DNA of 64,000 nucleotides from the IMG/VR virus record IMGVR_UViG_3300009000_000003; one strand, 5' to 3'. The notes under the pieces were generated by a model, which did not search any database, had not been told where the DNA came from, and saw only the letters and a program-made list of their open reading frames with translations. The position numbers and the translations under genes were made by a program. Positions 11,455-37,225 of this stretch are shown piece after piece. The first letter of the stretch is position 1, and each line of letters starts with the position of its first letter. The DNA comes from a virus.

Positions 11455-12516
11455 CTAATTTAAAATATGTGGGCGACTCTCATTAAAACCACTAGATGTA
11501 ATTTTTACAAATTTTACATTTTCAGGTTTTAAATCTGAGATTTGTTTTATAGACAAATAAGAAATTGTAGAAGCTAAAGCAGACTTAACTTCTTTATTAA
11601 AAGTATAAAAAGATTTTGTTGGGTGTATTTTTTTATTATTTTGTACACCTTCTGGAACACCATTAATTTTACCACGCTTATCTTTTTGAAATTCAGCAGA
11701 AGCTTGTCCTCTATAATATTTATAAGGTTTAGAAAAGAGTGGACGAATCCAACCTTCTGACTCATATATAGTTGAAAGCATACTACCTATCATCACGCCA
11801 TTAGCTCCAGCGGCTAGATATTTTGCAATATCACCAGTATTTTTAATTCCACCATCGGCAATTAATTTAAAGTTATTATATTCTTGAAATTGAAAATAAC
11901 GATAAATTTCATAAACTGCCGAAAGGTTAGGATAACCGCAACCAGTAACGATTCTTGTACTGCAAGCACTACCAGGGCCAATTCCAATGCGAACATGATT
12001 ACAACCAGCGGTATGAACAAATTCCGCTGCCCCAGGGGTTGCTACAGTACCTGACATTAAATTTTTACACCAAGAAAACCTAGAATAAGTTTCATATATT
12101 ATTTCCATTTCTTGAGTAGCACCATGGGCTACATCTACAGATATATTTAAATAAAAATCTTCTGGAAGTTGTTTAGTTTGTTTTAAATATTCAATTAATT
12201 CCCAATCGGAATCAAAAGCTCCAACGCTATACCAAAAATTTTCTTGAGAATGAAATTTTAAAATAGCTTTAACTTTTTGATCTAAAGGTAAAAATCTACA
12301 AAATACTGGATTTTGATTTTCAGCAATCATAGCTTCAGACATATTTAAACCAGTAACCACATCCATGGGACTGGAAAAAATAAAAGATGAATCAATAATA
12401 GCTTCAGATCTAGATTTTAAAAGACCAATAGAAGGTTGTAACAATACATCGTTAGTAGAAAGTTTTACTTGCGATGCATCTTCAAGACTAAAAACAAGAT
12501 CGTTGTATTTTATCAT
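11455..12516 (-). CDS. IMP dehydrogenase / GMP reductase family protein (no CBS domains)
   Basis: SSPMDVV, VDVAHG, GIGPGSACSTR, IADGGIK, VMIGS. Confidence 0.9.
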   Translation of the reverse strand: MIKYNDLVFSLEDASQVKLSTNDVLLQPSIGLLKSRSEAIIDSSFIFSSPMDVVTGLNMSEAMIAENQNPVFCRFLPLDQKVKAILKFHSQENFWYSVGAFDSDWELIEYLKQTKQLPEDFYLNISVDVAHGATQEMEIIYETYSRFSWCKNLMSGTVATPGAAEFVHTAGCNHVRIGIGPGSACSTRIVTGCGYPNLSAVYEIYRYFQFQEYNNFKLIADGGIKNTGDIAKYLAAGANGVMIGSMLSTIYESEGWIRPLFSKPYKYYRGQASAEFQKDKRGKINGVPEGVQNNKKIHPTKSFYTFNKEVKSALASTISYLSIKQISDLKPENVKFVKITSSGFNESRPHILN

Positions 12517-14094: not shown

Positions 14095-15170
14095 AAAGCT
14101 CCTTTTTTTGTAGGTAAATGTGAGCCTAAATAATAGGTTTGAGAATCATTAAAATTAGTATTTCCGTAAGCATCTTGATAAATTACAGCATAACCATTCA
14201 TTGCGTTTTTAAATCTAAGATCAGGTTGGAATTGATAGGGAAGCTTATGAGCCATAGCCCCTTGCTCAATTAACATTTTTCCTGATACAATTCCTTTATA
14301 AACTTTATGAGTATGCCCAACAACAATAGAATCAAAATCGTCGTAATGCATTCTTTCAGAAAAATGATCAAGTAATTTAACAACTGTAGCGCCAGGATAT
14401 TTAGAGCCAAAACCACTAGGATGGCAAAAAATAGTTTTACCAACCCTAACATACCATGGATCATGTCTTTGATAGAGGACGTTATCGAAATTAAGTTTTT
14501 CAATTAATTCTCCTCTGTCATTTAGTTTTTCACCATTGCTAATCTTAAACAATAGATCAGTACCAAATACTGAGCTAGCATCTTGATTAAAGCCTGCTTG
14601 TTTAACAGCTCGAGTAGTTCTATAATCATGGTTGCCGCATACTAATATTACTGTTTCAAAATGATCAGATAAGTAATGTACTAAATCAAATGCTACTTTA
14701 TATTCTTTTAAAGCAGCAATATTTTTGCTTTTAGAAAATGTACTAAATATATAAGCATCTAATATGTCGCCATTTAAAACAACAACATTAGCATCGGAAT
14801 GCAAAGTTAAAGCAGCTTCCATATCTTCCCAAAGGAAAAATGGAACATGTAAATCACTAAAAGTAATGATTTTACGTTCTTTAGAAGTCGTAAGACCTAA
14901 ATCTTTTTTAACAGATTTGGATCTATAGTCTTTAGTAGTTTTAATAATATAATCCCAAGAATCATTATAAGAAACAACGCTTTTAACATCAGGATCTCTA
15001 GAGATTTTATCTCTAGCAATCTTTCTGCGAATAGCATGTTCCGTTCTTTCAAAAGGAAAGCCTGGAACATTGTTTAAATGAAATTGAGAATATTTTTCTG
15101 CTAATTCTGAATTAGAATATTTGTTAATATTTTCAATTAGGAAGTTCTCTTCTTCAGGAGTCCACTTCAT
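14091..15170 (-). CDS. Calcineurin-like metallophosphoesterase with N-terminal helical (Myb/HTH-like) domain
   Basis: SDLH, GDILD, GNHD, GHTH motifs; MKWTPEEENFL start. Confidence 0.85.
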   Translation of the reverse strand: MKWTPEEENFLIENINKYSNSELAEKYSQFHLNNVPGFPFERTEHAIRRKIARDKISRDPDVKSVVSYNDSWDYIIKTTKDYRSKSVKKDLGLTTSKERKIITFSDLHVPFFLWEDMEAALTLHSDANVVVLNGDILDAYIFSTFSKSKNIAALKEYKVAFDLVHYLSDHFETVILVCGNHDYRTTRAVKQAGFNQDASSVFGTDLLFKISNGEKLNDRGELIEKLNFDNVLYQRHDPWYVRVGKTIFCHPSGFGSKYPGATVVKLLDHFSERMHYDDFDSIVVGHTHKVYKGIVSGKMLIEQGAMAHKLPYQFQPDLRFKNAMNGYAVIYQDAYGNTNFNDSQTYYLGSHLPTKKGAL

Positions 15171-16413
15171 CTGTTTGTATTCTTTCTAAATGTTTTAAAA
15201 TTAATTTTATATCTGGATCTGTTTGTTCTACTTTTACTTTAGCTTTTATAATATCTGATTCTTTTAAACCAGTAGCTTTTATTTTTTCCCATATAGAAGG
15301 AAACAATACAATCTCAGCACTAGCTGTAGAGTCATCTATTTCCATAAAAGCCATCATTTGTCCACGTCTAGTTTTAATTTCTTTTAACGATAAAATTACT
15401 CCAGCTACTCTAGCATCTAAACCAGGAGTAAGTGAAGATAAATCTTCTTTATTAATTTGAATTAAATCCAAAGGATGACCGCCAATATAGCAGCCAATAT
15501 AATTGGCTTGATCCATTATTTGTTTTAAAGTCAAAGGAACAAATTCTGTACGTTCAATTTCAGGAAAAGTAGGCTTTTCTTTTTTAGCTAAAGCAGGAAG
15601 CCTTTTTAATTTTTGATCTTCTAAATCTTGAAGCTCAGGTTCATAAATGTGAAGATTTGAAACATCTTCTTCTTTTTCTTTACCTTTAGAAATACGATTA
15701 GTTATTTTTTTAACTTCATTGCGTAAATAATTACGTCTTTCAATTAAAGGTTCTACGCGCTCATTATGCCTTTGACGTTCTACATAGTCAATTTCTCTTT
15801 GAGCATAATCTTCTAAATCTCTTACATATTGGTAAATACTAGAAGTATATTGAATCAAAGAATCTCGAGTATAACCCATTCGGTCAAAAGCACCTGCATG
15901 GACTAAAGCTTCAAAAACTTTTGTATTTACTTTTTGTAAATTAACTCTATCGAGAAAATCTCTTACGCTTTTAAAAGGTAGATTACCTCTAGCTTTAATA
16001 ATAGCTTTAGCTGCAGTTTTACCAACATCTCGAATAGCATTTAATCCAAAGTATATTTCATGATCTACAATGGTGAATTCATAACCGCTTTGATTAACAC
16101 TAGGCGGATAAACATTTACATTAAAACGTTTGGCTTCATTAATATATTCAGGAGCTTTAACTGCCCAAGATTTAGGTTGTAAAGTTTTACTTCGAGTACT
16201 CATTAAGGCAGCAAAAAATTCTACAGGATAATGAGCCTTCATATATGCAGTAATATAAGTCAACATAGAATAACTTACACTGTGTGCTTTATTAAAACAA
16301 TTTGAAGCAACAAGACCATTAGCTAAAGTAAAATTATGAGTATTGGTGCTAGATGCAACACCAATATCATATACTTGTTGCTCTCCAAGATATTCTTTTT
16401 TAATAATTTTCAA
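15154..16413 (-). CDS. dnaE: DNA polymerase III alpha, C-terminal part, preceded by split intein C-half (38 aa)
   Basis: MKIIKKEYLGEQQVYDIGV...HNFTLANGLVASN|CFNKAHSVSY...YPVEFFAALM; HhH and OB-fold motifs; TTG start. Confidence 0.95.
   Translation of the reverse strand: MKIIKKEYLGEQQVYDIGVASSTNTHNFTLANGLVASNCFNKAHSVSYSMLTYITAYMKAHYPVEFFAALMSTRSKTLQPKSWAVKAPEYINEAKRFNVNVYPPSVNQSGYEFTIVDHEIYFGLNAIRDVGKTAAKAIIKARGNLPFKSVRDFLDRVNLQKVNTKVFEALVHAGAFDRMGYTRDSLIQYTSSIYQYVRDLEDYAQREIDYVERQRHNERVEPLIERRNYLRNEVKKITNRISKGKEKEEDVSNLHIYEPELQDLEDQKLKRLPALAKKEKPTFPEIERTEFVPLTLKQIMDQANYIGCYIGGHPLDLIQINKEDLSSLTPGLDARVAGVILSLKEIKTRRGQMMAFMEIDDSTASAEIVLFPSIWEKIKATGLKESDIIKAKVKVEQTDPDIKLILKHLERIQTDEVDS
16300..16413 (-). 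mobile_element. Split intein, C-terminal half (IntC)
   Basis: Block F VYDIGV..HNF, terminal Ser-Asn, +1 Cys. Confidence 0.95.
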
Positions 16414-16415
16414 AA

Positions 16416-16649
16416 TTAATCTTCCACTTTAATATTTAAATCAGACATTTTTAAAGGTCGACCAGAGTCGCCATGAAAAGAATAAAAAGTAATTCCTTTA
16501 ACATGGTTTTTTAATTTATCAAAACTATCAATTACAATATTTTTTGTTTCATAACCATCAGGAATATATTTAGTAGCATAAGTATTTATGCCACAAAGAG
16601 ATCTTTGCCGATAGTATTTTGGATTTTTATAAGAAGCAATAATACGCAT
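16416..16649 (-). CDS. Hypothetical protein
   Basis: AAAGGA RBS; stop lies 2 nt before the IntC start. Confidence 0.5.
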   Translation of the reverse strand: MRIIASYKNPKYYRQRSLCGINTYATKYIPDGYETKNIVIDSFDKLKNHVKGITFYSFHGDSGRPLKMSDLNIKVED

Positions 16650-16669
16650 AATATTCCTTTATTAAAAAT

Positions 16670-16705
16670 AAAAAAAGGGCAGCTTGAATAAACAAGCCAC
16701 CCTTT
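16670..16705 (-). terminator. Rho-independent terminator
   Basis: Minus strand GGGTGGCTTG-TTTATT-CAAGCTGCCC followed by a T7 tract, downstream of the 1107 aa gene. Confidence 0.8.
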
Positions 16706-16749
16706 AAAAACAAGAAATTACTTTATTTGTTAAAGTGTATTAGTTTTGA

Positions 16750-19700
16750 TTAAACTTGATACCAGTCGGTAGAATTAATTGCTATTAAACGTAAAGTTTG
16801 TTTAGCAGCTAAAGTTATTAAAGTTGCACTAGAGCTTTGACCAGACTCATAGATTACATCGTTCCCATCTGCTGATACGGTGATACTATTACTATTAGTA
16901 TTAATATAAATCATTTCTAACCCTTGAGATGCTGAAGGTAATGTAGCATTGCTAGAAGTAACGATAATATGATTACCTAAATCATATTTCATCGTGCCTT
17001 CAAATTCAATCCCACTTGACCCGCCTGTTATTTTTGCTTGGGCTACAAGATTGCTTGAAATAATTACATCACTTGCAGACCCAGCACTTATAGTTAAATC
17101 GCCTGAATTTGCATAAAGTTCTGGAGTAATGACGCTATCAGCAGTCAAGTCGCCACCAGTCAAAGTAGCAATACCATCTGTGAAAGTGCCGGAAGCTACT
17201 TTACTAAGATTTGCAATTTCTCTATTTGAATTAACTACAAGAGCTTTATTTGCAGCAGCAGTGCCATCAGTAATATCGTCAATTTTCTCTAAATCAGCTG
17301 CATCAAGAACAGCGCTACCTACAGTAATAGTAGTAGCAGAAATACTACTTGCTAAATCAAAATCAAGAGAATTTGTTGCACTATCTGCAGAAATAACAAT
17401 GTTCCCTCTAGCTTCAGAAGAAAATATAACAGTTTGACCAAGATTAGGAGAAATAGTAAGACCACCAATACCTGCGCCAGTAGTACCTTTAATAAAGAAA
17501 CCAGAATTATCTAATTTGGCATTAGTAACACCACCATCTTTAATTTCTACAGAACCAGCTGTAACATCAAAATTAGCACCATTAAACTTAGCAACACCAA
17601 GAGTTGCCGCAGTAGCAGTTTCTACAGAAATAGAAAGCGCATCCGTATTAGCGTCATATGAAGTAGAGAGATTAGAAGTGGTTGCTCCACTTACAAGAGC
17701 TCCTGCAAGATCAGTTACTTCAGCATCAAAATCAGTAATTTGAGTATGATCAATACTAATATTTTGATGAGTAGCAGCTGTTAAACGACCTTGAGCATCA
17801 ACACTAATAGACAAAGATTTAGAAGCTTCACCATAATCGCCCGCAGTTACATTTGTATTATCAAGTGCAAAAGAGACTTGATCATCGCTGACTGTAGAAG
17901 TAAGAGCAGTTCCACCAACAAAAGTAAGAGTGCCACCAAGCAATGCAAGAGAATCCGCACCAGAATCACCTTTAAAAGCAAGGCTTGTAGCAACATCAGC
18001 AGTGCTGATACTGCGGACTCTACCACGAGTATCTACTTCAACTACAGGGATTTCAGTAGCAGAGCCATAAGTATCTGCAGTGAGGCCTGAAATAGTTGCT
18101 AAAGCAATTGTAGCTGCACCATTTTCTTGGTTGCTATTAGCTAAAACAAAATCTGAATTAGAGCCGCTTTCATTAAGTGTAGCAACATAATCACCAGTAG
18201 TATGAGTACCAAGATCAACTGAATCACTTTGCATTAATACGCTAACTGTAGCAGTACCAGTACCATTAGTAGTTACTGAGCCAGCCACATCACCTGCAAT
18301 AGCAATTGTAAAATTTGAAGCTAAAGCAGAAGCAGTGTCTGCATTCCCTTCAAGAGCACCACTAAATGTAGTTGCTGTAATTTTTTGCATTCCAGCAATA
18401 ACAGTATTCGTAGCGCCAAGAGTGAGAGCGGTGCTACCTAAAGTAGTAATTGAATTAGCTAACTGAGCATTAGAAACGCCTGCAGCCTTAATACTAACTG
18501 CGCCAGAAGTAACACTAAAATCTGAAGATGCAAATGAAGCTACACCCTTATTACTTTCAGAAGCATCTTCTGCAGCAACAGTAAGAGTATTAGCTACATC
18601 GTCATAAGTTAAAACAATAGCTTCACCTTGAGTAAGAAGATTGTCAACTCGATCGTCTACTCTTTCATCAGTGTAATAAAGATTAGTACCTTCTGCTAAA
18701 TTATCAGTGCTGTGATTAGAGAGTGTGCTGATTTTACCTATAAAAGTAGTAGCAGTAACAGTATCAAATGTAACATCATCTGTAGTTCCTACAGCCTGAC
18801 CAATTGAAATTGTTGAAGAACCAGTAATTGTAATACCAGTTCCAGCTTCAAGAATGTTGTTTACTGCTGAAGGAAGATCAGAAAGTTTAGCAGAGTCAAT
18901 TGTTGAATCAACAATATTTGCATTAGTAATAGTTCCAACTTTAAGAGTATCGGCGTCAATAAGAATAGACGCGCCATCAACATTAACACTAAGCTGACCA
19001 TTAGTATCAGCTAAACCAGCACCGTCAAGTCCTGTAACTTTACTTGCAGCAATTTGACCATCAGTAAGAGTCAAAGTGCCTGTTGAAACATCTAAAGCTT
19101 TTACTGTACCTAAAGAAGTTAATTCAGAACCTGCAAAGCTGTAAGTTCCAGCTGCAAAAGTACCTTCTGAAACCTTATTTGCAGGAATTTGACCTGCAGC
19201 AAGAGTTAAAGTAGCAGCACTTACATCTAAAGTAGAACCATCAGCAACTGTAATATCTTTAGAAAGTAAAGCTTGTTCAAATTGAATTTGAGAGTCAGCA
19301 GTATCTAAAACGATATAATCTGAAGCTCCAGCAGAAATGCTCAAAGCGTCTTGTTTAGTTTCAGGAAGCTTAACAGTAAATTGAGCAGTATCTAAAGCAG
19401 AACCATCAATAGTTAATTCAGCGTCATTAGATGCAATTACTGAAGAGCTAACAGTAGAAGCAGTCAAAGTAGAATCTAAAGAAACATTTCTAAAACCAGA
19501 AATATCTTTAGAAGAATCAACGACTACAGCAAGACCTTGAGAAACTGAACCAACAGTAACACCATCAAGTAAATTTAATTCAGAAGCAGTAGATGTAACT
19601 GCAGTTGCACCTAAAGTAATTCCTCCCTCAGGAGCAATAATTTTAGTTTTAATTGTACCTAAAGAAGCAGAACTAAAGTCAACTGTTGTGCCATCGCCGC

Positions 19701-20073
19701 TTAAAGGGTCAGTAGTAAGACCTTCAAACGTTTGCCAAACTTTATCGCTATCACTAGCATCGCGTGCAAAACCGCTATAAACTGGAGTACCATCAGTATC
19801 TTCAGCACCAACAAGACCAATGTCAGCAGTAGTACCAGTATTAGTTTTACCTAATTTAATTAATGTTTCATCAACAGCAAGTTGAGAAACTGTAACTTCA
19901 TTTGCATCTCCAGTAATCGTAAGATCGCCTTCAATAGTAACGTCACCTTTTGCAGTAAGGTTTACAGTATGAACGTCTTTCCAAGGCACTGTAGAAGTAC
20001 CAAGTGTATCTTGTCCACCTTCAGCATAACTTGCACCTGAAGGTGCTGTTTTTTGTCTTAAGCTTGAAGCCAT
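16750..20073 (-). CDS. Large Thr/Ser/Ala/Gly-rich virion fibre / tail fibre protein
   Basis: 1107 aa; TNLYYTDER, DAQGRLTAA and GVTNAKL repeats typical of fibre proteins; GGAG RBS. Confidence 0.7.
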   Translation of the reverse strand: MASSLRQKTAPSGASYAEGGQDTLGTSTVPWKDVHTVNLTAKGDVTIEGDLTITGDANEVTVSQLAVDETLIKLGKTNTGTTADIGLVGAEDTDGTPVYSGFARDASDSDKVWQTFEGLTTDPLSGDGTTVDFSSASLGTIKTKIIAPEGGITLGATAVTSTASELNLLDGVTVGSVSQGLAVVVDSSKDISGFRNVSLDSTLTASTVSSSVIASNDAELTIDGSALDTAQFTVKLPETKQDALSISAGASDYIVLDTADSQIQFEQALLSKDITVADGSTLDVSAATLTLAAGQIPANKVSEGTFAAGTYSFAGSELTSLGTVKALDVSTGTLTLTDGQIAASKVTGLDGAGLADTNGQLSVNVDGASILIDADTLKVGTITNANIVDSTIDSAKLSDLPSAVNNILEAGTGITITGSSTISIGQAVGTTDDVTFDTVTATTFIGKISTLSNHSTDNLAEGTNLYYTDERVDDRVDNLLTQGEAIVLTYDDVANTLTVAAEDASESNKGVASFASSDFSVTSGAVSIKAAGVSNAQLANSITTLGSTALTLGATNTVIAGMQKITATTFSGALEGNADTASALASNFTIAIAGDVAGSVTTNGTGTATVSVLMQSDSVDLGTHTTGDYVATLNESGSNSDFVLANSNQENGAATIALATISGLTADTYGSATEIPVVEVDTRGRVRSISTADVATSLAFKGDSGADSLALLGGTLTFVGGTALTSTVSDDQVSFALDNTNVTAGDYGEASKSLSISVDAQGRLTAATHQNISIDHTQITDFDAEVTDLAGALVSGATTSNLSTSYDANTDALSISVETATAATLGVAKFNGANFDVTAGSVEIKDGGVTNAKLDNSGFFIKGTTGAGIGGLTISPNLGQTVIFSSEARGNIVISADSATNSLDFDLASSISATTITVGSAVLDAADLEKIDDITDGTAAANKALVVNSNREIANLSKVASGTFTDGIATLTGGDLTADSVITPELYANSGDLTISAGSASDVIISSNLVAQAKITGGSSGIEFEGTMKYDLGNHIIVTSSNATLPSASQGLEMIYINTNSNSITVSADGNDVIYESGQSSSATLITLAAKQTLRLIAINSTDWYQV

Positions 20074-20095
20074 ATTTTTAATCTCCTGTTTTTAA

Positions 20096-23000
20096 TTATT
20101 CTGAATATCCAGTGAATATCGCATCACCTGTTGAAATGTCAATTTCAAAGTGTTTGTCTTCGTGTTTGATTGATTTGGAACCGAAGAACACTAGATCTCC
20201 AGCACCAGAATTAGCAATTACTTCAGCTAAGTCAATCTCAAAAGGACCTAAATGACCAGAAATCTTAATAGTTTCTGGAAGATAAACAATCTTAGGACCA
20301 ACTCCACTCCACTCTTGTTCTAAAAGACCACCATCTCTAGTATTCAGGGAAGCAATTTCTGAAACTAAGTCAACAACTTGAGACTGAGCAATTTGAATAT
20401 TTTGCAAAGTTGCAGAAGTGATCATACCATGAGAATCAAAAGCAAGACTTACAGTTTTAGCTGCATCATCTAAAGTTCCAGCAGTTACAGAATTAGTAAT
20501 ACTAAATTCTTCATCACTTAAAGTAAGCCCAGAACCTGCAGTATAAGTTGTATCAGTATTCACAACAGTTTCAGTAGCTGTGGAAACTGAAGTAACGTGC
20601 CCATTGCTATCTAAAGTAATGCTTTGGATATAAGTTCGGTCAGAATTACTCAAGTTAAGAGTAGCCGCAACAATATCTGGGTGAGTAGTTAAATAACCTA
20701 CGTTATTAACTAATTCAGATATATTATCATTAGGTTGCAAAGCAGAGTCAGCAGTAGTACCTTGAGCTGTAGTAGCATAGTTAGTTGAATCTGTATAGGC
20801 CGCAGTACCAAGCCCAAGAGCATTTTTCAGCGTTGTTTCAGCTGTAAGATCTGCATCAATAGCTGCTACAATTTCTTGTGCAGTTTGATCAGCAGTAGCT
20901 CCAGGTTCAATGCCAGCAACTTTATCGACTACAGTTTGTAAACCAGTAATAGCAGAAATAGGGTGTTGATCAGAAAGAGTTCTTTCAGTTAAAGCATCGT
21001 GGCTTGTAGCTGAGAATGCAGCATTAAGAGAAGATTGACGCCCTGAAAGCTGAGCAACAGAATTGATTTCACATTTATAAGCACCAGAAGTTTTAGCTTG
21101 AAGAACAATCTTGTAAAGAGGAACGAGCTCTGGAACAGAAAAACCTAAGTTAACAAACTCTTCAGCTTCAGCAGCGGCGACAGTTGTATACTGATCGTGG
21201 CCCATCATCAATTTAATAGGATATGTAGAATCATTAGTAGCAACCATATAATAGCTGATATAATTGCCATTAGAAACGGTTGCTAAAGATCCAACATTAT
21301 TAACAATTTGATTAAATTGAATACTAGTGGCATTTGCAAGCCAAGGAACACTAGTTGGTGAAGTTTGAACGACTGCTGAACCACTTTGGTGAATTACAGG
21401 AATTTCCGCATCACCGCTTAAAACTTGCTCATAAGGATTAGCTGAAGAACCATGCTGAATAACGTGTACAAGATCTTCATCAGCAATTGTAATTTGACCT
21501 AAAGACAAAGTTACATCAGTGTCATCTTCTAATTGATAGCTAAGAGCGCCGCCACTTCTCCAAATAGCACCTACATCGAGGTGTTGAGAAAGATGCCATT
21601 GAGTATCTCTATGAGATGAGTGTCTTTCATCACCAAAAATAATTGCTTCGGAATTAGTAGCGTCCCAGTAAACATAAGCAACAAGTAAATCTTCAATTAA
21701 CGAAGGATGTGCTCCAATAGCCAACTCTTGTAATGAATCTGTTGATGGATTATATTTAATATAACGACCACCAGCAGAATTAGTAATTTGAAGAGTTTTA
21801 GAAGAAGAAACAGTGATCTCTTGACCGCGATACCAAAGAGTAAATGAATCACCGACAGGTGACAAAGTAAAAGTGTTGGTAGAATTATCAAAAGAAAGAG
21901 ATGAATCATCCCTGTTGGGGAAACCAGTCATATCTAATGTAATAGAGCCAACAGCCTCGAGAGCCTCTGAACTAGTTATAAAATCAGAGATTTCAGAACT
22001 AATTTTAGAAGAAGACCATAAGCTATTTGCAGATACAACCGCATCATCAATATAGGTGTCAGCATTAAGACCTTGAGGACCTGTAGCACCTTGAGCTCCA
22101 GTTAGCCCTACAGGGCCAGTAGATCCCTGCGCACCAGTAGCGCCGGTAGGTCCTTGAAGACCTTGAGGGCCAACTTCACCCTGAAGGCCTTGTTCTCCCT
22201 GCGCTCCAGTCGGTCCTGCAAGACCTTGAGGCCCTTGTACCCCGGTAGGTCCTTGAGAGCCTTGTAGTCCTTGAGGACCTGTAGGTCCGATTGAACCTGC
22301 AGCTCCAGTTGCACCTGTGGGTCCAACTGGACCTTGAATGCCTTGCTCACCTTGCGGGCCTTGCTCACCTTGGAGACCCTGAGGGCCTTGTGGCCCCGTT
22401 GCCCCAATCGCACCAGTATCACCAGTAGCTCCAGTAATACCTTGAGGCCCGGTTGGGCCAGTCAAACCAATTAAACCTTGAGGGCCTTGTGGCCCGGTAG
22501 CGCCAATCGGTCCTTGGATGCCTTGAATACCTTGCGGACCGATTTCACCTTGTTCACCTTGTACCCCCTGAAGGCCTTGAGGTCCTGTAGCACCAGTCAA
22601 GCCAATAGAGCCTTGCGGCCCAACAGGGCCTGTTGGGCCTTGAATACCTTGTTCGCCTTGAGCCCCAGCCGGGCCTTGTTCACCTTGAGCTCCAGTAGGA
22701 CCTGTAAGTCCGGTAGGGCCAACTGCTCCAGTAACACCAGCTAAACCTTGCTCACCTTGGGGGCCAGTAGGGCCTTGGATACCCTGAGCTCCTTGGGCCC
22801 CGGTGGGGCCAACAGGTCCTTGAATTCCCTGGTCTCCCTGAAGCCCTTGAGGGCCTTGAGGCCCTGTTGCGCCAGTTAAACCTGTAGGTCCAGTAGGGCC
22901 TGTAGCACCTTGTGGACCTTGAGTTCCTGCAAATTGTCCAAAATCACTCCAAGTAGTACCGTTATAAACAATAAGATGATTTGTTAAATCATTAGTTAAA

Positions 23001-23947
23001 TAAGAAATAGAAGTAGAGCGATTATCTAAAGTTACTACAACAAAAAATAAATTAGAAGTAGTAATGGTGTCATCAGATTCAATTTGAGTGACAATAGTGT
23101 CGTTAAGCTCACCAGAATAATCAACATTAAAAGCTTGACCTGGGTCACCTTTAGGACCCGTAACTCCTGTTGGTCCAACAGGTCCCTGAAGGCCTGTTGT
23201 TCCTGCTAGCCCTTGCAAACCCTGAAGCCCTTGAGGGCCTTGAGCGCCAGTAGGGCCAATGGCACCAGTTGGGCCTTGCGGCCCTTGTGGACCAATAAGA
23301 CCTTGCGCTCCTGTAGGTCCTACGGGACCTTGGACACCTTGAATTCCTTGAAGACCTTGAGGGCCAACTTCGCCTTGTAAACCCTGCATGCCTTGAGGCC
23401 CCTGTGCACCTGTAGCACCTTGAGGGCCAGTTGGACCGATATCTCCTTGATCTCCTTTAAGGCCAGTTGCTCCGGTAAGTCCGGTTGGACCTGTAAGACC
23501 TTGCAATCCCTGAGGGCCTGTAGGGCCTCTTTGACCAATAGCCCCTGTGGGGCCTTGAGCTCCATCAAGACCGGATGCACCTTGAGGGCCAGCTTCACCT
23601 TGAGGCCCTTGTAGACCGGTTGGACCTACTAATCCTTGAGGACCAGTAGCACCCGTTGGTCCTTGTGGCCCAACTAAACCTTGAGGGCCTTGTAAGCCTT
23701 GAAGGCCTTGTGGTCCGGTTGGACCTTGCAATCCAGTAGGTCCCGAAGCTCCTGTTGGTCCTACTGGCCCAGTAGGACCAACAATACCTGATCCGGCTCC
23801 TCCAATAGCAGTAGCAATTTTTGCATCAATATCGGCTTCAGGTAAACCAAGAATAATTTTACCATCTGCATCTTTTTGATTTGGCTTGTCAAACAGATTG
23901 TCTAAATCTAAAGACCCTCTGCGTAAGTCTGTTCTTCTATTAGCCAT
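20096..23947 (-). CDS. Collagen-like fibre protein
   Basis: Two long Gly-X-Y blocks (GPTGPQGLQ...) plus globular and fibre domains. Confidence 0.85.
22070..23780 (-). repeat. Gly-X-Y collagen coding repeats in two blocks (approx. 22070-22930 and 23137-23780)
   Basis: 9-nt periodic, visibly GC-rich sequence (ccttgagggcc, gcaccagtagg etc.). Confidence 0.9.
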
Positions 23948-23960
23948 CTATGTTCTCCTA

Positions 23961-24326
23961 TTAATCGTCTATTGAATATCTTGCAAGTAGAACAGGAGTA
24001 TCATCTGGACTAGCTTTTTTTAAACCTACATCCCAAACAAACTCGAAGGTACTAGAGCTTGTAATTCTGTAATCGCCTAAAGAGTCAGGAGTTTCTTGAG
24101 GAGAAAGTACCAAGCCATCTAAAGTAATGATTATGCTGTTTCTTTTAGCGGGAAATGGTAGCGTAAATAAAAACTTGCCATCAGGATAATCAACATCGTC
24201 ATGTTCAGGAATCTGATCAGTAAGATCAAAAGTTCTAACAGTATGTTCTTGATTATAAATATTAACAGTATTTACTGTTATTGTAGAATTATCTACTGCG
24301 ACTAATTTTGGATAAACTGGATCCAT
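23961..24326 (-). CDS. Hypothetical, probably fibre-associated structural protein
   Basis: GGAG RBS; beta-rich; ITLDGLVL..DY motif. Confidence 0.5.
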   Translation of the reverse strand: MDPVYPKLVAVDNSTITVNTVNIYNQEHTVRTFDLTDQIPEHDDVDYPDGKFLFTLPFPAKRNSIIITLDGLVLSPQETPDSLGDYRITSSSTFEFVWDVGLKKASPDDTPVLLARYSIDD

Positions 24327-24335
24327 ATTTATCTC

Positions 24336-24707
24336 CTAAGCAGGTGTGTAAAAAATAGTGACGTCTGTTTGATCATTTATCAATGCTGTATATTCGCCAA
24401 GAATATATAACTTATTAAATTCACTATCTATATAAAAACCATCACCTAGCATAGATTCAAGTCTTGGAATAATGTCACCATTAATAAATAACATTACAAA
24501 TTTTTCAAAACCTTCCTTTATATAAGGGAAGATTTCATAAAATGAATCATTTTGATCAAATGAAGAAAAAGCTAAAGCTTTTTGTAAAGGCAAATTGTCT
24601 ACAATATTTCCAACAGTAGTAGTTTTATCAACATTCAAAGTATCAATTGTAATGTTGCTATCAGAAATAACTGTAACGGGTGTTCTTGTTTGAGCATGAG
24701 TCGCCAT
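24336..24707 (-). CDS. Hypothetical, probably fibre-associated structural protein
   Basis: GAGG RBS; LFING motif; N-terminus resembles the neighbour (DSNITIDTLNV vs NSTITVNTVNI). Confidence 0.5.
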   Translation of the reverse strand: MATHAQTRTPVTVISDSNITIDTLNVDKTTTVGNIVDNLPLQKALAFSSFDQNDSFYEIFPYIKEGFEKFVMLFINGDIIPRLESMLGDGFYIDSEFNKLYILGEYTALINDQTDVTIFYTPA

Positions 24708-24771
24708 ATAAACCTCGCCTTTTTGTTTAGTTTTAATATATTTTTGCTATTATTTTCAAGAGTATAGAAAA

Positions 24772-25089
24772 TTATATATTATCTTTTGTAGAAAAAATAT
24801 CTATTTCTTTAGTAAATAATAAATCAATTGGGAGCATTTGATTATTAGAAGACATAAATTTATGGTCTTCTGTACAATCAACATAATCTCCATTTTCTAA
24901 AGTGTATCTGTAAACAGTTTTAATACCTTTATCGTGCCATTGAGTGACTTGTTGAGCAACCCAAGGGGTAGCTTGAGTTGAATCATTACTAAGTACAAAA
25001 CCAGAATATTGAGCTTTAACAATATCTTCAATAGTTCTAGATCTTTTTGTAAGAGTAGGAATTAATATTTCGGTATTTCCTGCTAAACA
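24772..25089 (-). mobile_element. Split intein, N-terminal half (IntN)
   Basis: Cys1 in CLAGNTEI; block B CTEDHKF; QWHDKG; QMLPID; stop codon follows with no endonuclease domain. Confidence 0.95.
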
Positions 25090-26388
25090 ATAATCAGCAA
25101 AACCTAAAATATCTTTCCAAAGATCTTTAGCATAGTCAGATAACAAGCCACCTACTTTTACAGAATTTTCTATAAATTTTTCTTCATATTTTTCAAGAAC
25201 GGAAAGTTTTTTCTTACCCATAGCTCGTCGAACATCATCTGCTTCTTGTTGAGTAAAACCTGCTAAATCGGTAAATAATTTCATAATTTGTTCCTGATAT
25301 ATTAAAGTCCAATAAGAAGCTTTTAGAATTTCAGCAACTTGAAGAGGTAAATCTTCAGGCGGAGAATTATTTAATTTATTAGCAATATAAGTTTTATCAA
25401 GACCAGCTTGCAAAGGGCCAGGGCGGTTGATAGCACTGATAGCACTAAGATCCTCTATGCTAGCGGGTTGTATGTCATTAATTAATCGTTTAGCGGTACC
25501 GGATGTTTCCATTTGAAAAATACCAGTTAAACAACCTAAATTTAAATATTTATAAGCTAACTCGTCGCCATCTGGTATAGAATAAGGCTCTAAATCTATG
25601 TTGTAATTTTGTTTAATTAAATTTTTACATTCTTTGATAATAGATAAAGTGTCAATACCTAAAAAATCAAACTTAATAAGCCCAAGCTCTTCACATTCAT
25701 CTTTATCATATTGAGTAATTCTTTCTGCTTTACTATTAGACCAAACAGGGACAGTATCATGTATTTCTTTATCTGAAATAATGACACCTGCTGCATGGAT
25801 GCCAAAATTAGCAACCATGTTTTCTATTCTATCAGCAAATTCTAAAAAAGCAGAATATCTTTGATCATCAGAAAGGTCGGGATTTTCTTCAAGAACTTCT
25901 TCTAAAGTAGGTTCTTTGCCATACTTAGGAGGAGGAAACATTTTTAATAACTCGTTAAGTTCAGAAGAATCACCTTCGTGTATTCTATAAAAAGAACGAG
26001 CTAATGATTTTGGTTTAAAAGTTCCATGAGTTATAATATTGGCAACTCTCTCACGCCCCCAATAATCAATGCACCATTGTATTGCTTTCTCTCTATCTAA
26101 AGCATCATGGTCTATATCAATATCGGGAGTCGCACCCCCAATAGTATCTGATCTCATTTTATTAAAATCAAACACATCGGTAAGTCCAGTAATATAAAGT
26201 AAAATACTATTATATGGATTTTCTAAAAAAGAATGTTTAGACTGTAAACAAGATTCAATTCTGTCTAAATCTTCTAAAGAAATCATAGCAACTTCTTGAT
26301 GGAGAAAATCTGGATCTACTTTTTGATAACGATCTTCAATAATATAAGAATCTATTTCTTTTAAAAAAGTTTCTCGAGATTTAAACAT
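24772..26388 (-). CDS. dnaE: DNA polymerase III alpha, catalytic core, ending in split intein N-half (105 aa)
   Basis: PDIDID, GIHAAGV, KFDFLG, GIFQME, NRPGP, YQEQ, RRAMGKK; GFADY|CLAGNTEI. Confidence 0.95.
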   Translation of the reverse strand: MFKSRETFLKEIDSYIIEDRYQKVDPDFLHQEVAMISLEDLDRIESCLQSKHSFLENPYNSILLYITGLTDVFDFNKMRSDTIGGATPDIDIDHDALDREKAIQWCIDYWGRERVANIITHGTFKPKSLARSFYRIHEGDSSELNELLKMFPPPKYGKEPTLEEVLEENPDLSDDQRYSAFLEFADRIENMVANFGIHAAGVIISDKEIHDTVPVWSNSKAERITQYDKDECEELGLIKFDFLGIDTLSIIKECKNLIKQNYNIDLEPYSIPDGDELAYKYLNLGCLTGIFQMETSGTAKRLINDIQPASIEDLSAISAINRPGPLQAGLDKTYIANKLNNSPPEDLPLQVAEILKASYWTLIYQEQIMKLFTDLAGFTQQEADDVRRAMGKKKLSVLEKYEEKFIENSVKVGGLLSDYAKDLWKDILGFADYCLAGNTEILIPTLTKRSRTIEDIVKAQYSGFVLSNDSTQATPWVAQQVTQWHDKGIKTVYRYTLENGDYVDCTEDHKFMSSNNQMLPIDLLFTKEIDIFSTKDNI

Positions 26389-26451
26389 GTTAAACTTTCA
26401 AATAATAAAAAGATGGAAATTACCTAAAGTAAGAAACTGCAAAGGTGGTTG

Positions 26452-26796
26452 TTAAACCACCCAAGATTTGTTTAAATAATATTCAGGATTTTCTATAGAT
26501 ATATTAAATACTTGGGAAAGATTTTGTTTTTCTTGAATAGAAAATAATCTTTCGTTTAAAGAAAATAAAATTTGTAAAACTTTTTGAGTTTGACTATTTG
26601 CTTCACAAATAATTGTATAGTTAGCAGTCAAGTTATAAAGCAAAGCACTTATAATGTAGTTTGTTTCATTACCTACAAAAAATTTTGCACATTTATAATT
26701 AGATTCGTCAGTAAAACACTTTTTTAAATTCTTAAATAAAGAACTTGTTGGATCTACATTTAAGTTAAAAAGCGAGTTATTTGTATCCATATGCAC
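26452..26796 (-). CDS. Hypothetical protein
   Basis: ORF between dnaE pieces. Confidence 0.45.
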   Translation of the reverse strand: MHMDTNNSLFNLNVDPTSSLFKNLKKCFTDESNYKCAKFFVGNETNYIISALLYNLTANYTIICEANSQTQKVLQILFSLNERLFSIQEKQNLSQVFNISIENPEYYLNKSWVV

Positions 26797-26803
26797 CTGC
26801 TTG

Positions 26804-27031
26804 TTATCTTACAGATGTCCAATCTGTATAATTTGTAAAATCACATTTCATAATTTTAACATCAGTTCTCTGAGTTAATCTTCTGTAAGATCTAGCATCA
26901 GATCTAGTAGTGTGTAATGTCCTACCTTTAATAGTTATAGGTGTATTTGTCGTTTGATCGACAACAGCATAAAGAGTGGTAGCACAAGTATCTATAGGAG
27001 TAACTAGATTAGTCATAATTATTTCTTTCAA
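26804..27031 (-). CDS. Hypothetical protein
   Basis: ORF between dnaE pieces. Confidence 0.45.
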   Translation of the reverse strand: MKEIIMTNLVTPIDTCATTLYAVVDQTTNTPITIKGRTLHTTRSDARSYRRLTQRTDVKIMKCDFTNYTDWTSVR

Positions 27032-28338
27032 AAAGGTAAAGTAAACTGATCTGCTTGCTCAGCCATTTGTTTATTAAAAATAAGAGGGGTAGCAGCACGA
27101 CCCTCATTAAGAAAACGAGAAAACATAAGATCGTATTTAATTGGATCAATTTCAGTAATGCCTAAAGACCAGGCTACAAGAGAACCAGCAGCAGAACCTC
27201 GACCGGGCCCATGCATTACTCCATAATCTCTAGCACCATTCATAAATTGAGAAACAATTAACATATAATCAGAAAAACCCATACGTTTAATTACATTTAA
27301 TTCATGATCAAGCCTATCTCGATATTCTTGAGGAGGCATATCATTAAACCTATTGTATAAACCGTGTTGAGATTCTAAAGTAAGGAATTCAAAACTTTTA
27401 TAAGTTTCTGGAAGATCTTGAAACTTAGGATAACGGTTCATTCTATCCATAAAATAAGTTTCATTATCTATCAAATCAGCTACATGAACTGTATTAGATA
27501 TGACGTCGTAAGGCATATTTTGTTGGTTAGCTTCATTCCAAGTCCAATCATGAGATGCAAAATGAACATCTATTGGTCCGAAACTAAATCTTTTTTCATC
27601 AGAAAGTACAGTTTTAGTTTGCATACACAAAGCGGCTTCATGATGTTGTTTATCATGTTCATGAGTGTAATGACAATCACATGTAAGTACCATAGGTAAA
27701 TTATGTTTAGAAGCAATTTCTTGCAAAACTTTATTTACAGCTTGTTGCTCTTCATCTTTATGGAGTTGAAGTTCCACAAGAAATCTATCTTTAAACATTT
27801 CTTTATGATGTAAAATAAGATTTTCTGCGGCTTTTTTCTCACCCATAAGGATGAGTTGACTTGCTCTACTACCCAAACAAGTAGTGGTAGCAATAATACC
27901 TTCAGAATATTGAGCAATAAGAGCATCATCAATACGTGGTTTACGATACATACCTTCAGTATAAGCATAAGAACTGAGCTTCATGAGGTTATGTAAACCA
28001 ATATTATTTTGAGCTAACAAAATCAAATGATAATAAGACTTGCCTAAATGGTCAGGTTCTTTTGCAGTTCTATCATTTATAGTATAATAAGCTTCCATAC
28101 CGATAATTGGTTTTATATCTTGTTTTTTACATTCTTTATAAAATTTGTAACTACCTGATACATTACCATGATCTGTCATCGCTACAGCAGGCATACCCAT
28201 TTGTTTTGCATAAGCAGGAAGCCTATTAACTTTATTAATTCCATCTAAAAGACTATATTCTGTATGTACATGCAAATGCACATAAGGCTTTTCAGACGGA
28301 TTCTGATGTTGGTTTTGATGATTGCATGTCGTTGCCAT
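27028..28338 (-). CDS. dnaE: DNA polymerase III alpha, N-terminal PHP piece
   Basis: HLHVHTEYSLLDG, MTDHG, IGMEAY, DCHY, GPGRGSAAGSLV, FSRFLNEGR, then stop. Confidence 0.95.
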   Translation of the reverse strand: MATTCNHQNQHQNPSEKPYVHLHVHTEYSLLDGINKVNRLPAYAKQMGMPAVAMTDHGNVSGSYKFYKECKKQDIKPIIGMEAYYTINDRTAKEPDHLGKSYYHLILLAQNNIGLHNLMKLSSYAYTEGMYRKPRIDDALIAQYSEGIIATTTCLGSRASQLILMGEKKAAENLILHHKEMFKDRFLVELQLHKDEEQQAVNKVLQEIASKHNLPMVLTCDCHYTHEHDKQHHEAALCMQTKTVLSDEKRFSFGPIDVHFASHDWTWNEANQQNMPYDVISNTVHVADLIDNETYFMDRMNRYPKFQDLPETYKSFEFLTLESQHGLYNRFNDMPPQEYRDRLDHELNVIKRMGFSDYMLIVSQFMNGARDYGVMHGPGRGSAAGSLVAWSLGITEIDPIKYDLMFSRFLNEGRAATPLIFNKQMAEQADQFTLPF

Positions 28339-28732
28339 TTAATAAATTGCTTTCTTTTCCAGTACACACAAGCTTAAAATGTTCAAAGTAATTGGGTTGC
28401 TCTTCAATTAAAGCACGTAAACCCATCTTACCACCAGTGCAAAGAGTTTCTTCTTCACTTGTCGTGGGATTTTGCCACTTTACTGCAGAGCCAGCAAAAC
28501 GAACAAAACCCATGTCTTTTGCAAGACCAATGACATCCATGATTTTATCAGTGCCTTTAGCACATTCAAATTCAAATTCAGCTACTTTATTAAGAGCTGG
28601 AGCAACTTTGTTCTTAACTATTTTTACTTTCATAGCCAAAGTATTAGGAGAGTCAGAGCTAGGCTTAGAACTAACCCTGAGCCTAACAGAAGCGTAAAAT
28701 GGAATAGCATTGCCACCTGAAGTTGTTTCTGG
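28292..28732 (-). CDS. recA: RecA exon 2
   Basis: PETTSGGNAIPFYASVRL...KIVKNKVAP; continues exon 1 in frame after the intron. Confidence 0.93.
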   Translation of the reverse strand, partial: PETTSGGNAIPFYASVRLRVSSKPSSDSPNTLAMKVKIVKNKVAPALNKVAEFEFECAKGTDKIMDVIGLAKDMGFVRFAGSAVKWQNPTTSEEETLCTGGKMGLRALIEEQPNYFEHFKLVCTGKESNLLNGNDMQSSKPTSESV

Positions 28733-29673
28733 CACGAAACTCCACAAGTTTACCATACTTGTGGCGTGGACTATATCTTCATCTTTCTCTCGAAAGAGCC
28801 TTGCGCTTGGGGAACGTACCAATCTCATTCCCTACTCTACTCACTTCCATCTTTCGATGTGTTTTCGATAGTCTCTACACCTTCCTCTATTAAAGAGGCT
28901 TGGCACGGTATTGCCCAATAAATGGAGGGGTTCACCGTTAGCCCGTAATGGACACCCACTGGTAGTGGTTCACAAGGTTTTTTTCCTAGAGTCGCCTCTA
29001 GGGGAAACCGTAGAAACTGAAGTATAGTTTCTTTAGCAGTGTCAATATTCTCTTCTAATATAACGCAATAATGATAACCCATAGAAGTTAGCTCTTTGAT
29101 TTTTCTTTGATCACTCTTCTTTTGTTTTTCGAAAGAGTGAGCCCAAGAGCCATGAATATCTATACAATACTTTTGACCAAGATAAAAATCAATAGACCAT
29201 TGATTAATTCGTTTTTCATAGATATAAGCTAAATCTAATTCATCTAAAATTTCTTTAAGCTTTTCTTCTAAACGATTCATGGAAACATTTCTTCTAACAG
29301 AAACGCCCATGGCTTTTCTTTTGTGGCCAACAGCAGATTCACTACAGCCCCAAAGATCAGCTAGTTTAACATGGCTAAGATAAGGGTCTTTAAGCATTTG
29401 GATAGCTTCAGGAGTATTGGGAATTTTCTTACGATACATACGTTGTCTTTTTAAACCTAAGGCTTTTAAAAGACGGTAAACTGTTTCGTCACAAAAATTT
29501 AAATACTCTTGAAGTTCTGTTAATTTCATTAAATTGTAATTCTTTTGAACAAATTGAATTTGTTCTTGAGTAATTTCTTTATTAAAAGTGACACCGTTTA
29601 TAGTAGTTGACATATAACCTCCTGTAAAGTTGGCATATAGTAAACTACACAAAACAATACTTATTTCAAGTTA
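28733..29673 (-). mobile_element. Group I intron (IA2-like), 941 nt, in recA
   Basis: 5' exon ends in U (AAT|TAA), intron ends in G (GTG|CCA); IGS GTTTCC; P2 with GCGA loop; R GTAGAGACTA; S AAGATATAGTCC; P7.1/P7.2 hairpins; P9. Confidence 0.95.
28837..29613 (-). CDS. Intron-encoded homing endonuclease, Vsr-like (EDxHD) family
   Basis: GGAGG RBS before ATG at 29613; HTH-like N-terminal repeats; E..IDF...IDIHGSWAH...DQRK. Confidence 0.8.
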   Translation of the reverse strand: MSTTINGVTFNKEITQEQIQFVQKNYNLMKLTELQEYLNFCDETVYRLLKALGLKRQRMYRKKIPNTPEAIQMLKDPYLSHVKLADLWGCSESAVGHKRKAMGVSVRRNVSMNRLEEKLKEILDELDLAYIYEKRINQWSIDFYLGQKYCIDIHGSWAHSFEKQKKSDQRKIKELTSMGYHYCVILEENIDTAKETILQFLRFPLEATLGKKPCEPLPVGVHYGLTVNPSIYWAIPCQASLIEEGVETIENTSKDGSE

Positions 29674-30300
29674 ATTTCCGTACATGACACCAATATTCAT
29701 GCGAACTTGGTTAATAAATAAATATAAACAATCATGATCTACACTAATTTTGCTAATAGCTCGGAGAGCTTTAGAAAGTAATCTAGGTAAATCACCAACG
29801 CCCATCTCATTCATAAGTCGTTTAGTATCTCGTTCTGATTGAGCAGCGTCAATAGAGTCAAATACAATAACGCCTACTTTACCAGTCTTGCCAAGATCTT
29901 GGCAAAGCTGAAGCGCTTCTTCAGCAGTATCAGGGTAACAGAAAACCATACGATCAGGGTCGATTCCCATAGACTTAATAAGATCTAAACCAGTAGTACG
30001 CTCTAAATCTACAAATACTGGGACTCTATCGTAACCATAAGTATCTACATAAGACTTAACGATTTGAAGGCAAAGACTAGTTTTGCCAGCGCTTGGAGGA
30101 CCAAATATTTCTACAACTCTATCTGAAGGTAAACCTCCGACACCTAAAGCAGAGTCAAGAGTTACAGAACCTGTAGAAATTGCTTTTACTTTTTCATACT
30201 TTGGACCAAGAGAAATAGAATCTTCTTTGCCAAACTTTTTACTAATACTATTAGCAATTGCATCAATTTCTGGAATACCTGTAATTTTTTTAATTGCCAT
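29674..30300 (-). CDS. recA: RecA exon 1
   Basis: ISTGSVTLDSALGVGGLP, Walker A GPPSAGKT, FDSI, FINQVRMNIGVMYGN. Confidence 0.95.
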
Positions 30301-30488
30301 TAATCATCTCTTTCAGGATTTAAAACATGTTTTACTTCCTGAGGATCAGGAAGAGTGCAATCATGAATTTTATTTGCAATATCAGTATTGCCAAGCAAAT
30401 GAACAATTTCTGATAATGGGTGAGCTATTAAATTATGGATTGTCCATTTATATCTAATAGGTAAAATATTAATAATTTTTTTTATCAT
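30300..30488 (-). CDS. Small hypothetical protein
   Basis: WTIHNLIAHPLSE...HD motif; coupled to recA start. Confidence 0.5.
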   Translation of the reverse strand: MIKKIINILPIRYKWTIHNLIAHPLSEIVHLLGNTDIANKIHDCTLPDPQEVKHVLNPERDD

Positions 30489-36796: not shown

Positions 36797-37225
36797 CTAC
36801 TGCCACCCTAACATTCGAGGAAGAGCAGCAGTAAATAATCTACCAAGAACTTGAAACTCTCCAGCAGATAAAGAAACAGAAACTCTTTTATCCCCTGAAG
36901 AAAGACCCATCATAAAAGTACCAGCATATTTACCTTCGCCAGGTGTAATAGTAAGCTTTTTGCCAGTACCATCATTATCATGATAAAAACTTCCCCACTT
37001 TGGGGAAGAAGGATCATCAAAAAATTGAGTTAAATCATTGATACCAAAAGCAAATGTAATCTTTTGATTTTTCCAATCATAAGATTTTTCTCCTTGAGAA
37101 GGAGCCATCTCTAAAAGCACCGCACCAGTTTTTTGAATTCTATTATTATCGTCTACTCTAGGAGGCAATAAAGTGAATTGAGCTGCTGCAGATTTTTTAT
37201 AAATGTTAAATGAAGTTGGATACAT
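36797..37225 (-). CDS. Whirly-family ssDNA-binding protein
   Basis: IYKKSAAA, LLEMAP, YDW, FYHD, GEFQVL...LPRMLGW match the motif order of plant Whirly; AAGGA RBS before ATG at 37225. Confidence 0.7.
   Translation of the reverse strand: MYPTSFNIYKKSAAAQFTLLPPRVDDNNRIQKTGAVLLEMAPSQGEKSYDWKNQKITFAFGINDLTQFFDDPSSPKWGSFYHDNDGTGKKLTITPGEGKYAGTFMMGLSSGDKRVSVSLSAGEFQVLGRLFTAALPRMLGWQ

Follow-up and report, generated by a model that had tools for sequence, protein, structure and literature searches.

Does the split DnaE intein of cyanobacteria occur in cyanobacteria only, and how does a phage whose DnaE polymerase gene is broken by such an element come to possess a complete enzyme? These questions are raised by a 64,000-nucleotide stretch of DNA, hereafter the window, from the IMG/VR virus record IMGVR_UViG_3300009000_000003. 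The window belongs to an uncultured phage of about 155 kb, in a lineage with genomes of about 155-160 kb. The known cyanobacterial DnaE split inteins, such as Ssp and Npu (Wu et al. 1998 and Caspi et al. 2003, as cited in PMC2677866; PDB 1zd7, 2keq, 4kl5), are standard tools for protein trans-splicing, and the literature that we searched calls them cyanobacterial. We found that the phage DnaE gene is divided by a split intein at the same site as in cyanobacteria, and hence that the cyanobacterial-type DnaE split intein is not confined to cyanobacteria.

Anatomy of the Split Intein and Its Insertion Site

Two genes of the window, P0001 and P0002, each carry one half of the intein fused to a part of the polymerase. 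The N-terminal and C-terminal intein halves are termed IntN and IntC below, and lengths are given in amino acids (aa).

24772-26388, minus strand: P0001, DnaE piece 2 followed by IntN; 538 aa, from the translation
24775..25089, minus strand: IntN, 105 aa, with Cys1, block B Thr-x-x-His (CTEDH), QWHDKG and QMLPID
15154-16413, minus strand: P0002, IntC followed by DnaE piece 3; 419 aa, TTG start, from the translation
16300..16413, minus strand: IntC, 38 aa, TTG start, with VYDIGV (block F Asp), HNF and a terminal ...VASN

The translation of P0001 runs through ...ILGFADY into CLAGNTEI... and on to the stop codon, giving a 433-aa N-extein and the 105-aa IntN. That of P0002 starts (M)KIIKKEYLGEQQVYDIGV...HNFTLANGLVASN and continues with CFNKAHS, giving a 38-aa IntC, the last residues of which are ...GLVASN, and a 381-aa C-extein. 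If spliced, the two exteins would add up to 433 + 381 = 814 aa, with the junction GFADY-CFNKAH. A preliminary description of this DNA had given the same sequences, the same half lengths (105 and 38 aa) and the same sum, all of which agree with the translations. The complete catalytic set of a class-1 intein is present, namely Cys1 (CLAG...), the block B Thr-x-x-His (CTEDH), the block F Asp (VYDIG), the terminal Asn and the Cys at +1 (...ASN-C). The penultimate residue of IntC is Ser and not His, in agreement with the lack of a penultimate His that had been claimed.

Residues 85-435 of P0001 aligned with solved DnaE structures (E 1e-56), the alignment ending at fady-CL in the phage protein and at fady-AF in the structures. 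The junction maps to FADY-AF at residue 777 of Mycobacterium tuberculosis DnaE1 and to about residue 756 of E. coli DnaE, which places the phage break, judged by this alignment, at the exact position of the cyanobacterial FAEY-CFNK junction. The IntN and IntC genes lie on the same strand, 8.36 kb apart, and every gene in the region is on the minus strand.

Kinship with Cyanobacterial DnaE Inteins

When searched alone against solved structures, IntN matched the consensus DnaE intein (7qil, E 5e-16), Npu (4kl5/2keq, 2e-15) and Ssp (1zd7, 1e-11), and the next intein families, Mtu RecA and gp41-1, followed only at E 0.01 and E 0.14, respectively. IntC together with 20 extein residues gave a structure match at E 2e-9, and the 36-aa Npu IntC chain was matched at E 5e-7. 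In a search of 1.84 billion representative proteins with IntN, the top matches belonged to the phage's own clade (GFADY-CLAG flanks), directly followed by cyanobacterial DnaE-N proteins with KFAEY-CLSY(E/D)TE flanks (E 8e-16). By these scores the match is far beyond chance, and in this search the cyanobacterial DnaE inteins are the nearest relatives of the phage intein outside its own clade.

A degenerate DNA pattern for FAEY-CLSY(D/E)TE recovered at least 120 stretches, nearly all of the records listed being cyanobacterial, including Gloeobacterales; Gloeomargarita turned up through a separate protein scan of cellular genomes. This pattern replaced P0064 as a query for cyanobacterial loci, which had given Pseudomonas loci. 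P0064 is a 483-aa database protein made up of an artificial fusion between an Azotobacter/Pseudomonas-like protein and the Npu IntN, and can mislead homology-based fetching. IntN measures 96-110 aa in the phages, as against 100-105 aa in most cyanobacteria; the phage IntC has 35-38 aa, and the single cyanobacterial IntC that we read has 36 aa. The halves in a Gloeobacterales genome are 100 and 36 aa long. These matching lengths place the split at the same point, between blocks B and F, in the phage and cyanobacterial inteins; in the cyanobacterial-type family, an IntN of about 100-123 aa and an IntC of about 35-36 aa are encoded by separate genes.

The two groups thus have in common the extein protein, the site (FA-E/D-Y followed by CFNK), the split (IntN of about 100 and IntC of about 36 aa), a class-1 chemistry with Ser instead of His before the terminal Asn, and the motifs QWH.(R/K)G, T.(D/E)HKF, MLPID and YLG.Q.VYDIGV..HNF. 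The differences are a viral host, an extein of about 35% identity, an IntN that is only about 38% identical and an IntC that is about 60% identical to Npu IntC over the aligned residues (hand count), with a 3-residue insertion in the phage. Furthermore, a fibre cassette separates the phage halves, which lie on one strand at a distance of 2.8-13.6 kb, and the phage polymerase has a further, intein-free break upstream. The kinship with the Npu/Ssp DnaE split intein that had been proposed is borne out by the same site, the same split, the best structure matches and a joint clade with 99/98 support.

The site takes various forms in cyanobacteria. In a Gloeobacterales metagenome-assembled genome (MAG; L148:3994-5180), the split-intein halves adjoin and a free-standing 266-aa LAGLIDADG gene (Pfam 2e-12) lies between them, which by its gene content makes this locus a 'fractured gene' form of the classical cyanobacterial allele. 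The gaps between the halves in L174, L237 and L241 are similar in size to that of L148. In L180 and L202 (Oscillatoriales MAG, Laspinema palackyanum), IntN and IntC run on without a stop as one uninterrupted mini-intein of about 133-137 aa, and in L166 and L157 the halves are adjacent yet separate. Both exteins were on the same strand in 12 of the 118 cyanobacterial 8-kb loci. A continuous dnaE with no intein at the site was found in L254, L257, L262, L275, L251 and L248, that is, in Prochlorococcus, marine Synechococcus and Gloeomargaritales VI4D9, where the empty site reads FAEY-CFNKSH and keeps the Cys at +1. Four non-cyanobacterial bacteria that we checked do not show a Cys at +1 (Ala in the single one aligning there).

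Conservation in the Phage Clade and the Case for an Active Intein

Relatives in IMG/VR showed 55-71% identity, with matches that included IntN. The protein collection searched contains at least 40 clusters of related proteins, grouped at 90% identity; all are of about 540 aa and end in IntN, and no longer, fused form closer than 38% was found among longer proteins. The IntC gene lies downstream on the same strand in every relative whose contig reaches far enough, and the distance between the halves ranges from 2.8 kb (L007) through 3.9 kb (L006), 7.7 kb (L005) and 8.36 kb (window) to 11.5, 12.2 and 13.6 kb (G001, G003 and G004, respectively). At least 90% of the 54 clade IntN sequences retain Cys1, QWH, G.K and CT..H.F, and the seven clade IntC sequences retain VYDIG, HNF (NNF in one of seven), the terminal Asn and Cys+1. 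Identity among the IntN sequences of the clade is only 43%. DnaE is the only DNA polymerase of the phage lineage; two complete relatives have one DnaE set only and neither a family A nor a family B polymerase, and the DnaE gene is therefore presumably essential. As the gene is presumably essential, the splicing residues are presumably held by purifying selection despite the divergence of IntN.

Taken together, these data make it highly probable that the phage element is a naturally split class-1 (Cys1/Asn-Cys+1) intein allelic to the cyanobacterial DnaE split intein. Some observations weigh against this interpretation. The IntC gene of the window phage starts with TTG and not with ATG as in its relatives, the 3-residue insertion in IntC relative to the cyanobacterial IntC is shared by most clade members, and the charges of IntN and IntC, compared for the opposite net charge of a 'capture and collapse' mechanism, showed no consistent pattern. 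In addition, no recognisable motif accounts for the joining of a further piece of the polymerase, described below. The halves might have lost the ability to splice and now merely keep the two polymerase chains together by non-covalent docking, as a 'dead intein clasp'. We consider this improbable, as all catalytic residues (Cys1, the Thr and His of block B, the Asp of block F, the terminal Asn and Cys+1) are present and have been retained across a clade with IntN at 43% identity, and as both halves are of full length. The separation of the halves is not an artefact of assembly or a chimeric contig, since six independent assemblies from ENA and JGI contain proteins with an identity of at least 90% to P0001 and share one gene order that extends from recA to an Mre11-like gene. 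The layout also holds in diverged relatives, one of them with direct terminal repeats. This recurrence refutes the artefact explanation, to which we assign practically no weight.

A Polymerase Encoded in Three Genes

The two intein-bearing genes do not encode the entire polymerase, the parts of which are arranged as follows.

27028..28338, minus strand: DnaE piece 1 (P0005), 436 aa; Pfam PHP 3e-49, DNA_pol3_alpha positions 3-102 of 260
26452..27031, minus strand: two small open reading frames (ORFs) of 75 and 114 aa between pieces 1 and 2, from the translation
25090..26388, minus strand: DnaE piece 2 (N-extein), 433 aa; DNA_pol3_alpha positions 100-260, finger domain 5e-43
15154..16299, minus strand: DnaE piece 3 (C-extein), 381 aa; starts CFNKAHS; Pfam HHH_6 1e-28, OB fold 4e-7

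The third DnaE gene (27028-28338) was absent from the preliminary description. The 814-aa chain, although correctly summed there, is not the whole enzyme, since it is this gene that supplies the PHP domain and the start of the palm profile (its first 100 positions). The palm profile halves of P0005 (3-102) and P0001 (100-260) complement each other and, given splicing, the full enzyme would comprise 436 + 814 = 1250 aa in two chains. P0005 ends with RFLNEGRAATP and an 18-aa tail that is conserved in 8 clade members. The N-extein opens with an 84-aa N-terminal extension, for which the mean identity in the clade is 52%. This is followed by the remainder of the palm (PDIDIDHD, HAAG), the fingers and the GFADY end. 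Both cut ends of the break between P0005 and P0001 are thus conserved as protein within the clade.

No intein motif was found on either cut end of this break (Pfam; profile search of solved structures), and an Rfam scan of 26000-30400 gave no match even at E 1, the group I intron model included. The 75- and 114-aa ORFs had no Pfam or PHROG match and contained no Rfam intron; ORFs of like size are called at the same place in independent assemblies. We rejected a group I intron as the cause of the break, on account of the empty Rfam scan and the protein-conserved cut ends. Two further candidates were also discarded: a duplicated helix shared by pieces 1 and 2 (SLVAWSLGITE versus SILLYITGLTD), for which BLASTP returned nothing and hhalign gave a probability of 0.4% (E 0.15), and a dead intein half in the N-terminal extension of P0001, for which there was no Pfam match and the profile search of solved structures was empty. 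Phage 'genes in pieces' without inteins are known, such as the split gene 43 and the mobE-split nrdA of phage Aeh1. The break between P0005 and P0001 resembles these in being intein-free with protein-conserved cut ends; unlike genes in pieces of the Aeh1 type, no homing endonuclease is recognisable between P0005 and P0001.

We propose that P0001 (palm, fingers and IntN) and P0002 (IntC, HhH and OB) are made as separate proteins, the intein halves of which would bind each other and fold into one HINT domain. Cys1 would then form a thioester that is attacked by Cys+1, and cyclisation of the terminal Asn would yield the 814-aa chain with the junction GFADY-CFNKAH. We infer that P0005 docks on this chain without an intein, presumably non-covalently, via its own conserved tail and the N-terminal extension of P0001. 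One presumably essential phage polymerase would thereby be assembled by two means, protein splicing and an intein-free join, with a group I intron as a third in some relatives.

Such an intron was seen in L010 (10897-12205), as well as in L008 and L009, where the P0001 homologue is further interrupted between SAISAIN and RPGP. The interruption consists of a group I intron (Rfam RF00028, 66.8 bits, E 2e-16) and, after it, a 324-aa homing-endonuclease ORF on the reverse strand. With this intron added to the intein and the piece 1 break, the polymerase of L008-L010 appears to need three kinds of joining, namely RNA splicing, protein splicing and an intein-free join.

Phylogeny and Possible Transfer of the Intein

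An IntN tree of 103 rows united all inteins at the FA(D/E)Y site in one clade (99/98 support, stem 0.67), apart from the inteins of other sites. The cyanobacterial inteins were monophyletic (97/94) with short internal branches, and those of the phage type were much more diverse. The free tree nested the cyanobacterial clade among phage-type rows. We did not retain the suggestion that the cyanobacterial inteins arose inside viral diversity, since the approximately unbiased (AU) test did not reject the phage-type and cyanobacterial inteins as two sister clades (p 0.65). The IntN tree therewith settles neither a sister nor a nested arrangement, nor the direction of a possible transfer. Related DnaE N-inteins were found four residues downstream of the site, at GFNK-C or GFNL-C, in the metagenome proteins P0157, P0085, P0073, P0119 and P0151, which share DHKF(R)TTCGQMLPI. 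P0157, P0085 and P0119 cluster (99/90) just outside the FADY/FAEY-site clade; the tree does not resolve the placement of P0073, and P0151 is not in the tree.

Over residues 86-433, the extein shows 32-38% identity with the DnaE of cyanobacteria; for other bacteria the range is 31-38%. In the extein tree, the phage clade stands alone on a branch of 1.09 substitutions per site, off an unresolved backbone, and the AU test neither supported nor rejected phage and cyanobacteria as one clade (p 0.40). The ratio of intein to extein distances was 2.5 within the phages, 1.2 within the cyanobacteria and 1.0 between the two groups. As the ratio between the groups is only 1.0, the intein is less diverged than co-descent predicts, which, with distances near saturation, is a weak hint at a sharing of the intein after the divergence of the polymerases. 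A 2.5-kb metagenomic sequence (L328, Logan SRR5467136, GC content 0.48) encodes P0060, in which a phage-clade-like extein (62% identity over a 64-aa fragment) is followed by an intein that groups with the cyanobacterial clade (99/96). The ORFs beyond it have no similarity to the window.

One explanation for these data is that the intein alone moved between phage and cyanobacterial dnaE, in either direction, at FA(E/D)Y-CFNK after the polymerases had diverged, with an IntN-homing endonuclease-IntC cassette as a plausible vehicle. We rate the chances of this as even. It would account for the ratio of 1.0 between the groups, as compared with 2.5 and 1.2 within them, and for the pairing of a phage-clade-like extein with a cyanobacterial-clade intein in P0060. 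The Gloeobacterales genome with a free-standing LAGLIDADG gene between adjacent halves, and the other cyanobacteria with an uninterrupted mini-intein at the site, are also in its favor. However, the distances are near 1.2 and close to saturation, the P0060 extein fragment has only 64 aa, the AU tests leave both trees open, and an endonuclease between the halves was found in no phage (window, L006 and L007). The phage might instead have recently taken the whole split dnaE from a cyanobacterial host, so that both intein and polymerase would be cyanobacterial. Cyanobacteria supply the best cellular matches to P0001 because these matches include IntN, and the extein AU test (p 0.40) did not reject a clade of phage and cyanobacteria. 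On the other hand, the extein is no closer to cyanobacteria than to other bacteria, the phage clade has a branch to itself, 1.09 substitutions per site in length, the extra break in the phage polymerase has no counterpart in cyanobacteria, and the two complete relatives carry no cyanophage marker genes (psbA/psbD, hli). We regard such a capture of the whole gene as highly improbable. An exchange of the intein between the viral lineage and cyanobacteria as a mobile IntN-endonuclease-IntC cassette, with such phages as the vehicle or even the source, is a tentative and rather unlikely scenario. If it is true, phage and cyanobacterial halves might still cross-splice.

The preliminary description had also suggested that the phage halves could cross-splice with the DnaE of the host. 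The window comes from an IMG/VR virus record, in contrast to the cyanobacterial host organisms of this intein family, and the psbA/psbD and hli searches in the two complete relatives were negative, as stated above. No relative closer than 37% was found among 185,579 bacterial and archaeal species, and no cultured phage closer than about 30%. A purA-like gene, examined for a host clue, had a single match in cellular genomes, at 27%. Nothing in these sequence searches points to a cyanobacterial host. Since there is no host clue and the dnaE of Prochlorococcus and marine Synechococcus is intein-free, cross-splicing with host DnaE stays a speculation.

Relation to Known Split Inteins

'Fractured genes' of environmental phage-like DNA have been described, including three DnaE loci, with an IntN of 88-105 aa and an IntC of 33-54 aa (Dassa et al. 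2009, PMC2677866). The window phage resembles these in having phage-like replication genes broken by split inteins. In the fractured genes (PMC2677866), however, a free-standing homing endonuclease gene lies between halves that adjoin each other, whereas the halves in the window are separated by 8.36 kb of fibre genes and no endonuclease. Moreover, the fractured DnaE loci (PMC2677866) are at other integration points, and the window phage carries its intein at the cyanobacterial site. The 'cyanophage-like' inteins gp41-1, NrdJ-1 and IMPDH-1 are likewise naturally split and come from marine phage-like DNA, but they are only distantly related to the phage element (gp41-1, E 0.14 versus IntN) and reside in different extein proteins.

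In full-text literature searches, we found no viral split intein reported from the DnaE site used in cyanobacteria. The phages described here provide a diverse viral branch of the same allele, with at least 40 protein clusters whose IntN sequences are 33-63% identical among themselves and to the cyanobacterial ones. These variants form a ready natural panel for testing orthogonality, speed and extein tolerance. The viral branch also serves as an outgroup for the question of how and when the cyanobacterial dnaE was split, and the question of origin can be tested with the contiguous, adjacent and endonuclease-bearing cyanobacterial forms added.

The Cassette between the Intein Halves

Five ORFs occupy the 8.36 kb between the halves, namely two fibre proteins and three small ORFs.

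23961..24707, minus strand: two small ORFs of 123 and 121 aa, opening the cassette; no family match (Pfam, PHROG)
20096..23947, minus strand: collagen-repeat tail-fibre protein, 1283 aa; Pfam Collagen 1e-76, PHROG tail fibre down to 6e-150
16750..20073, minus strand: second fibre-like protein, 1107 aa, rich in Thr/Ser/Ala/Gly; weak PHROG structural match only
16674..16705, minus strand: terminator-like hairpin with a 13-bp stem and then a T run, closing the fibre cassette
16416..16649, minus strand: 77-aa ORF, its stop codon abutting the start of the IntC gene; no Pfam/PHROG match, conserved in independent assemblies

The 123- and 121-aa ORFs occur in the same order in six independent assemblies, and the collagen-repeat fibre gene causes a local peak of 0.52 in the GC profile. 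A homologue of the 1107-aa protein is in the same position in L005, where a similar hairpin is also present just upstream of the IntC gene; the length of this protein differs among near-identical phages. We considered a homing endonuclease as the content of the region and rejected it in favor of a variable tail-fibre cassette: no homing endonuclease family match was found in the five ORFs of the window (Pfam, PHROG), nor in L006 and L007. The cassettes of L006 and L007 hold other proteins, one of them with a ConA-like lectin domain. Among phages with polymerases at least 90% identical, the fibre proteins are 1364 and 1243 aa long in L338, as compared with 1283 and 1107 aa in L335, L336 and L339. 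The fibre cassette is a hot spot of variation.

Other Genes of the Window

The window further contains an IMPDH/GMP-reductase-like gene (11455-12516), adenylosuccinate lyase-like and synthetase-like genes (59796-62031) and phoH (37206-38081). Cellular relatives of the adenylosuccinate synthetase-like gene are almost absent, the best match being 27% identical. A RecA/UvsX-like gene is also in pieces (28292-30300, minus strand), with the same split in independent assemblies. Its N part of 209 aa ends with ...GVMYGN, and its C part of 178 aa resumes with PETTSGGNA after a 32-aa leader. The break contained no intein motif and no Rfam intron (E 1), and a group I intron was thus rejected as its cause. 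The 271-aa ORF between the two parts (28837-29652) showed weak matches to HNH and intron-encoded nucleases. The junction of the two parts fits the RecA motif, with nothing missing.

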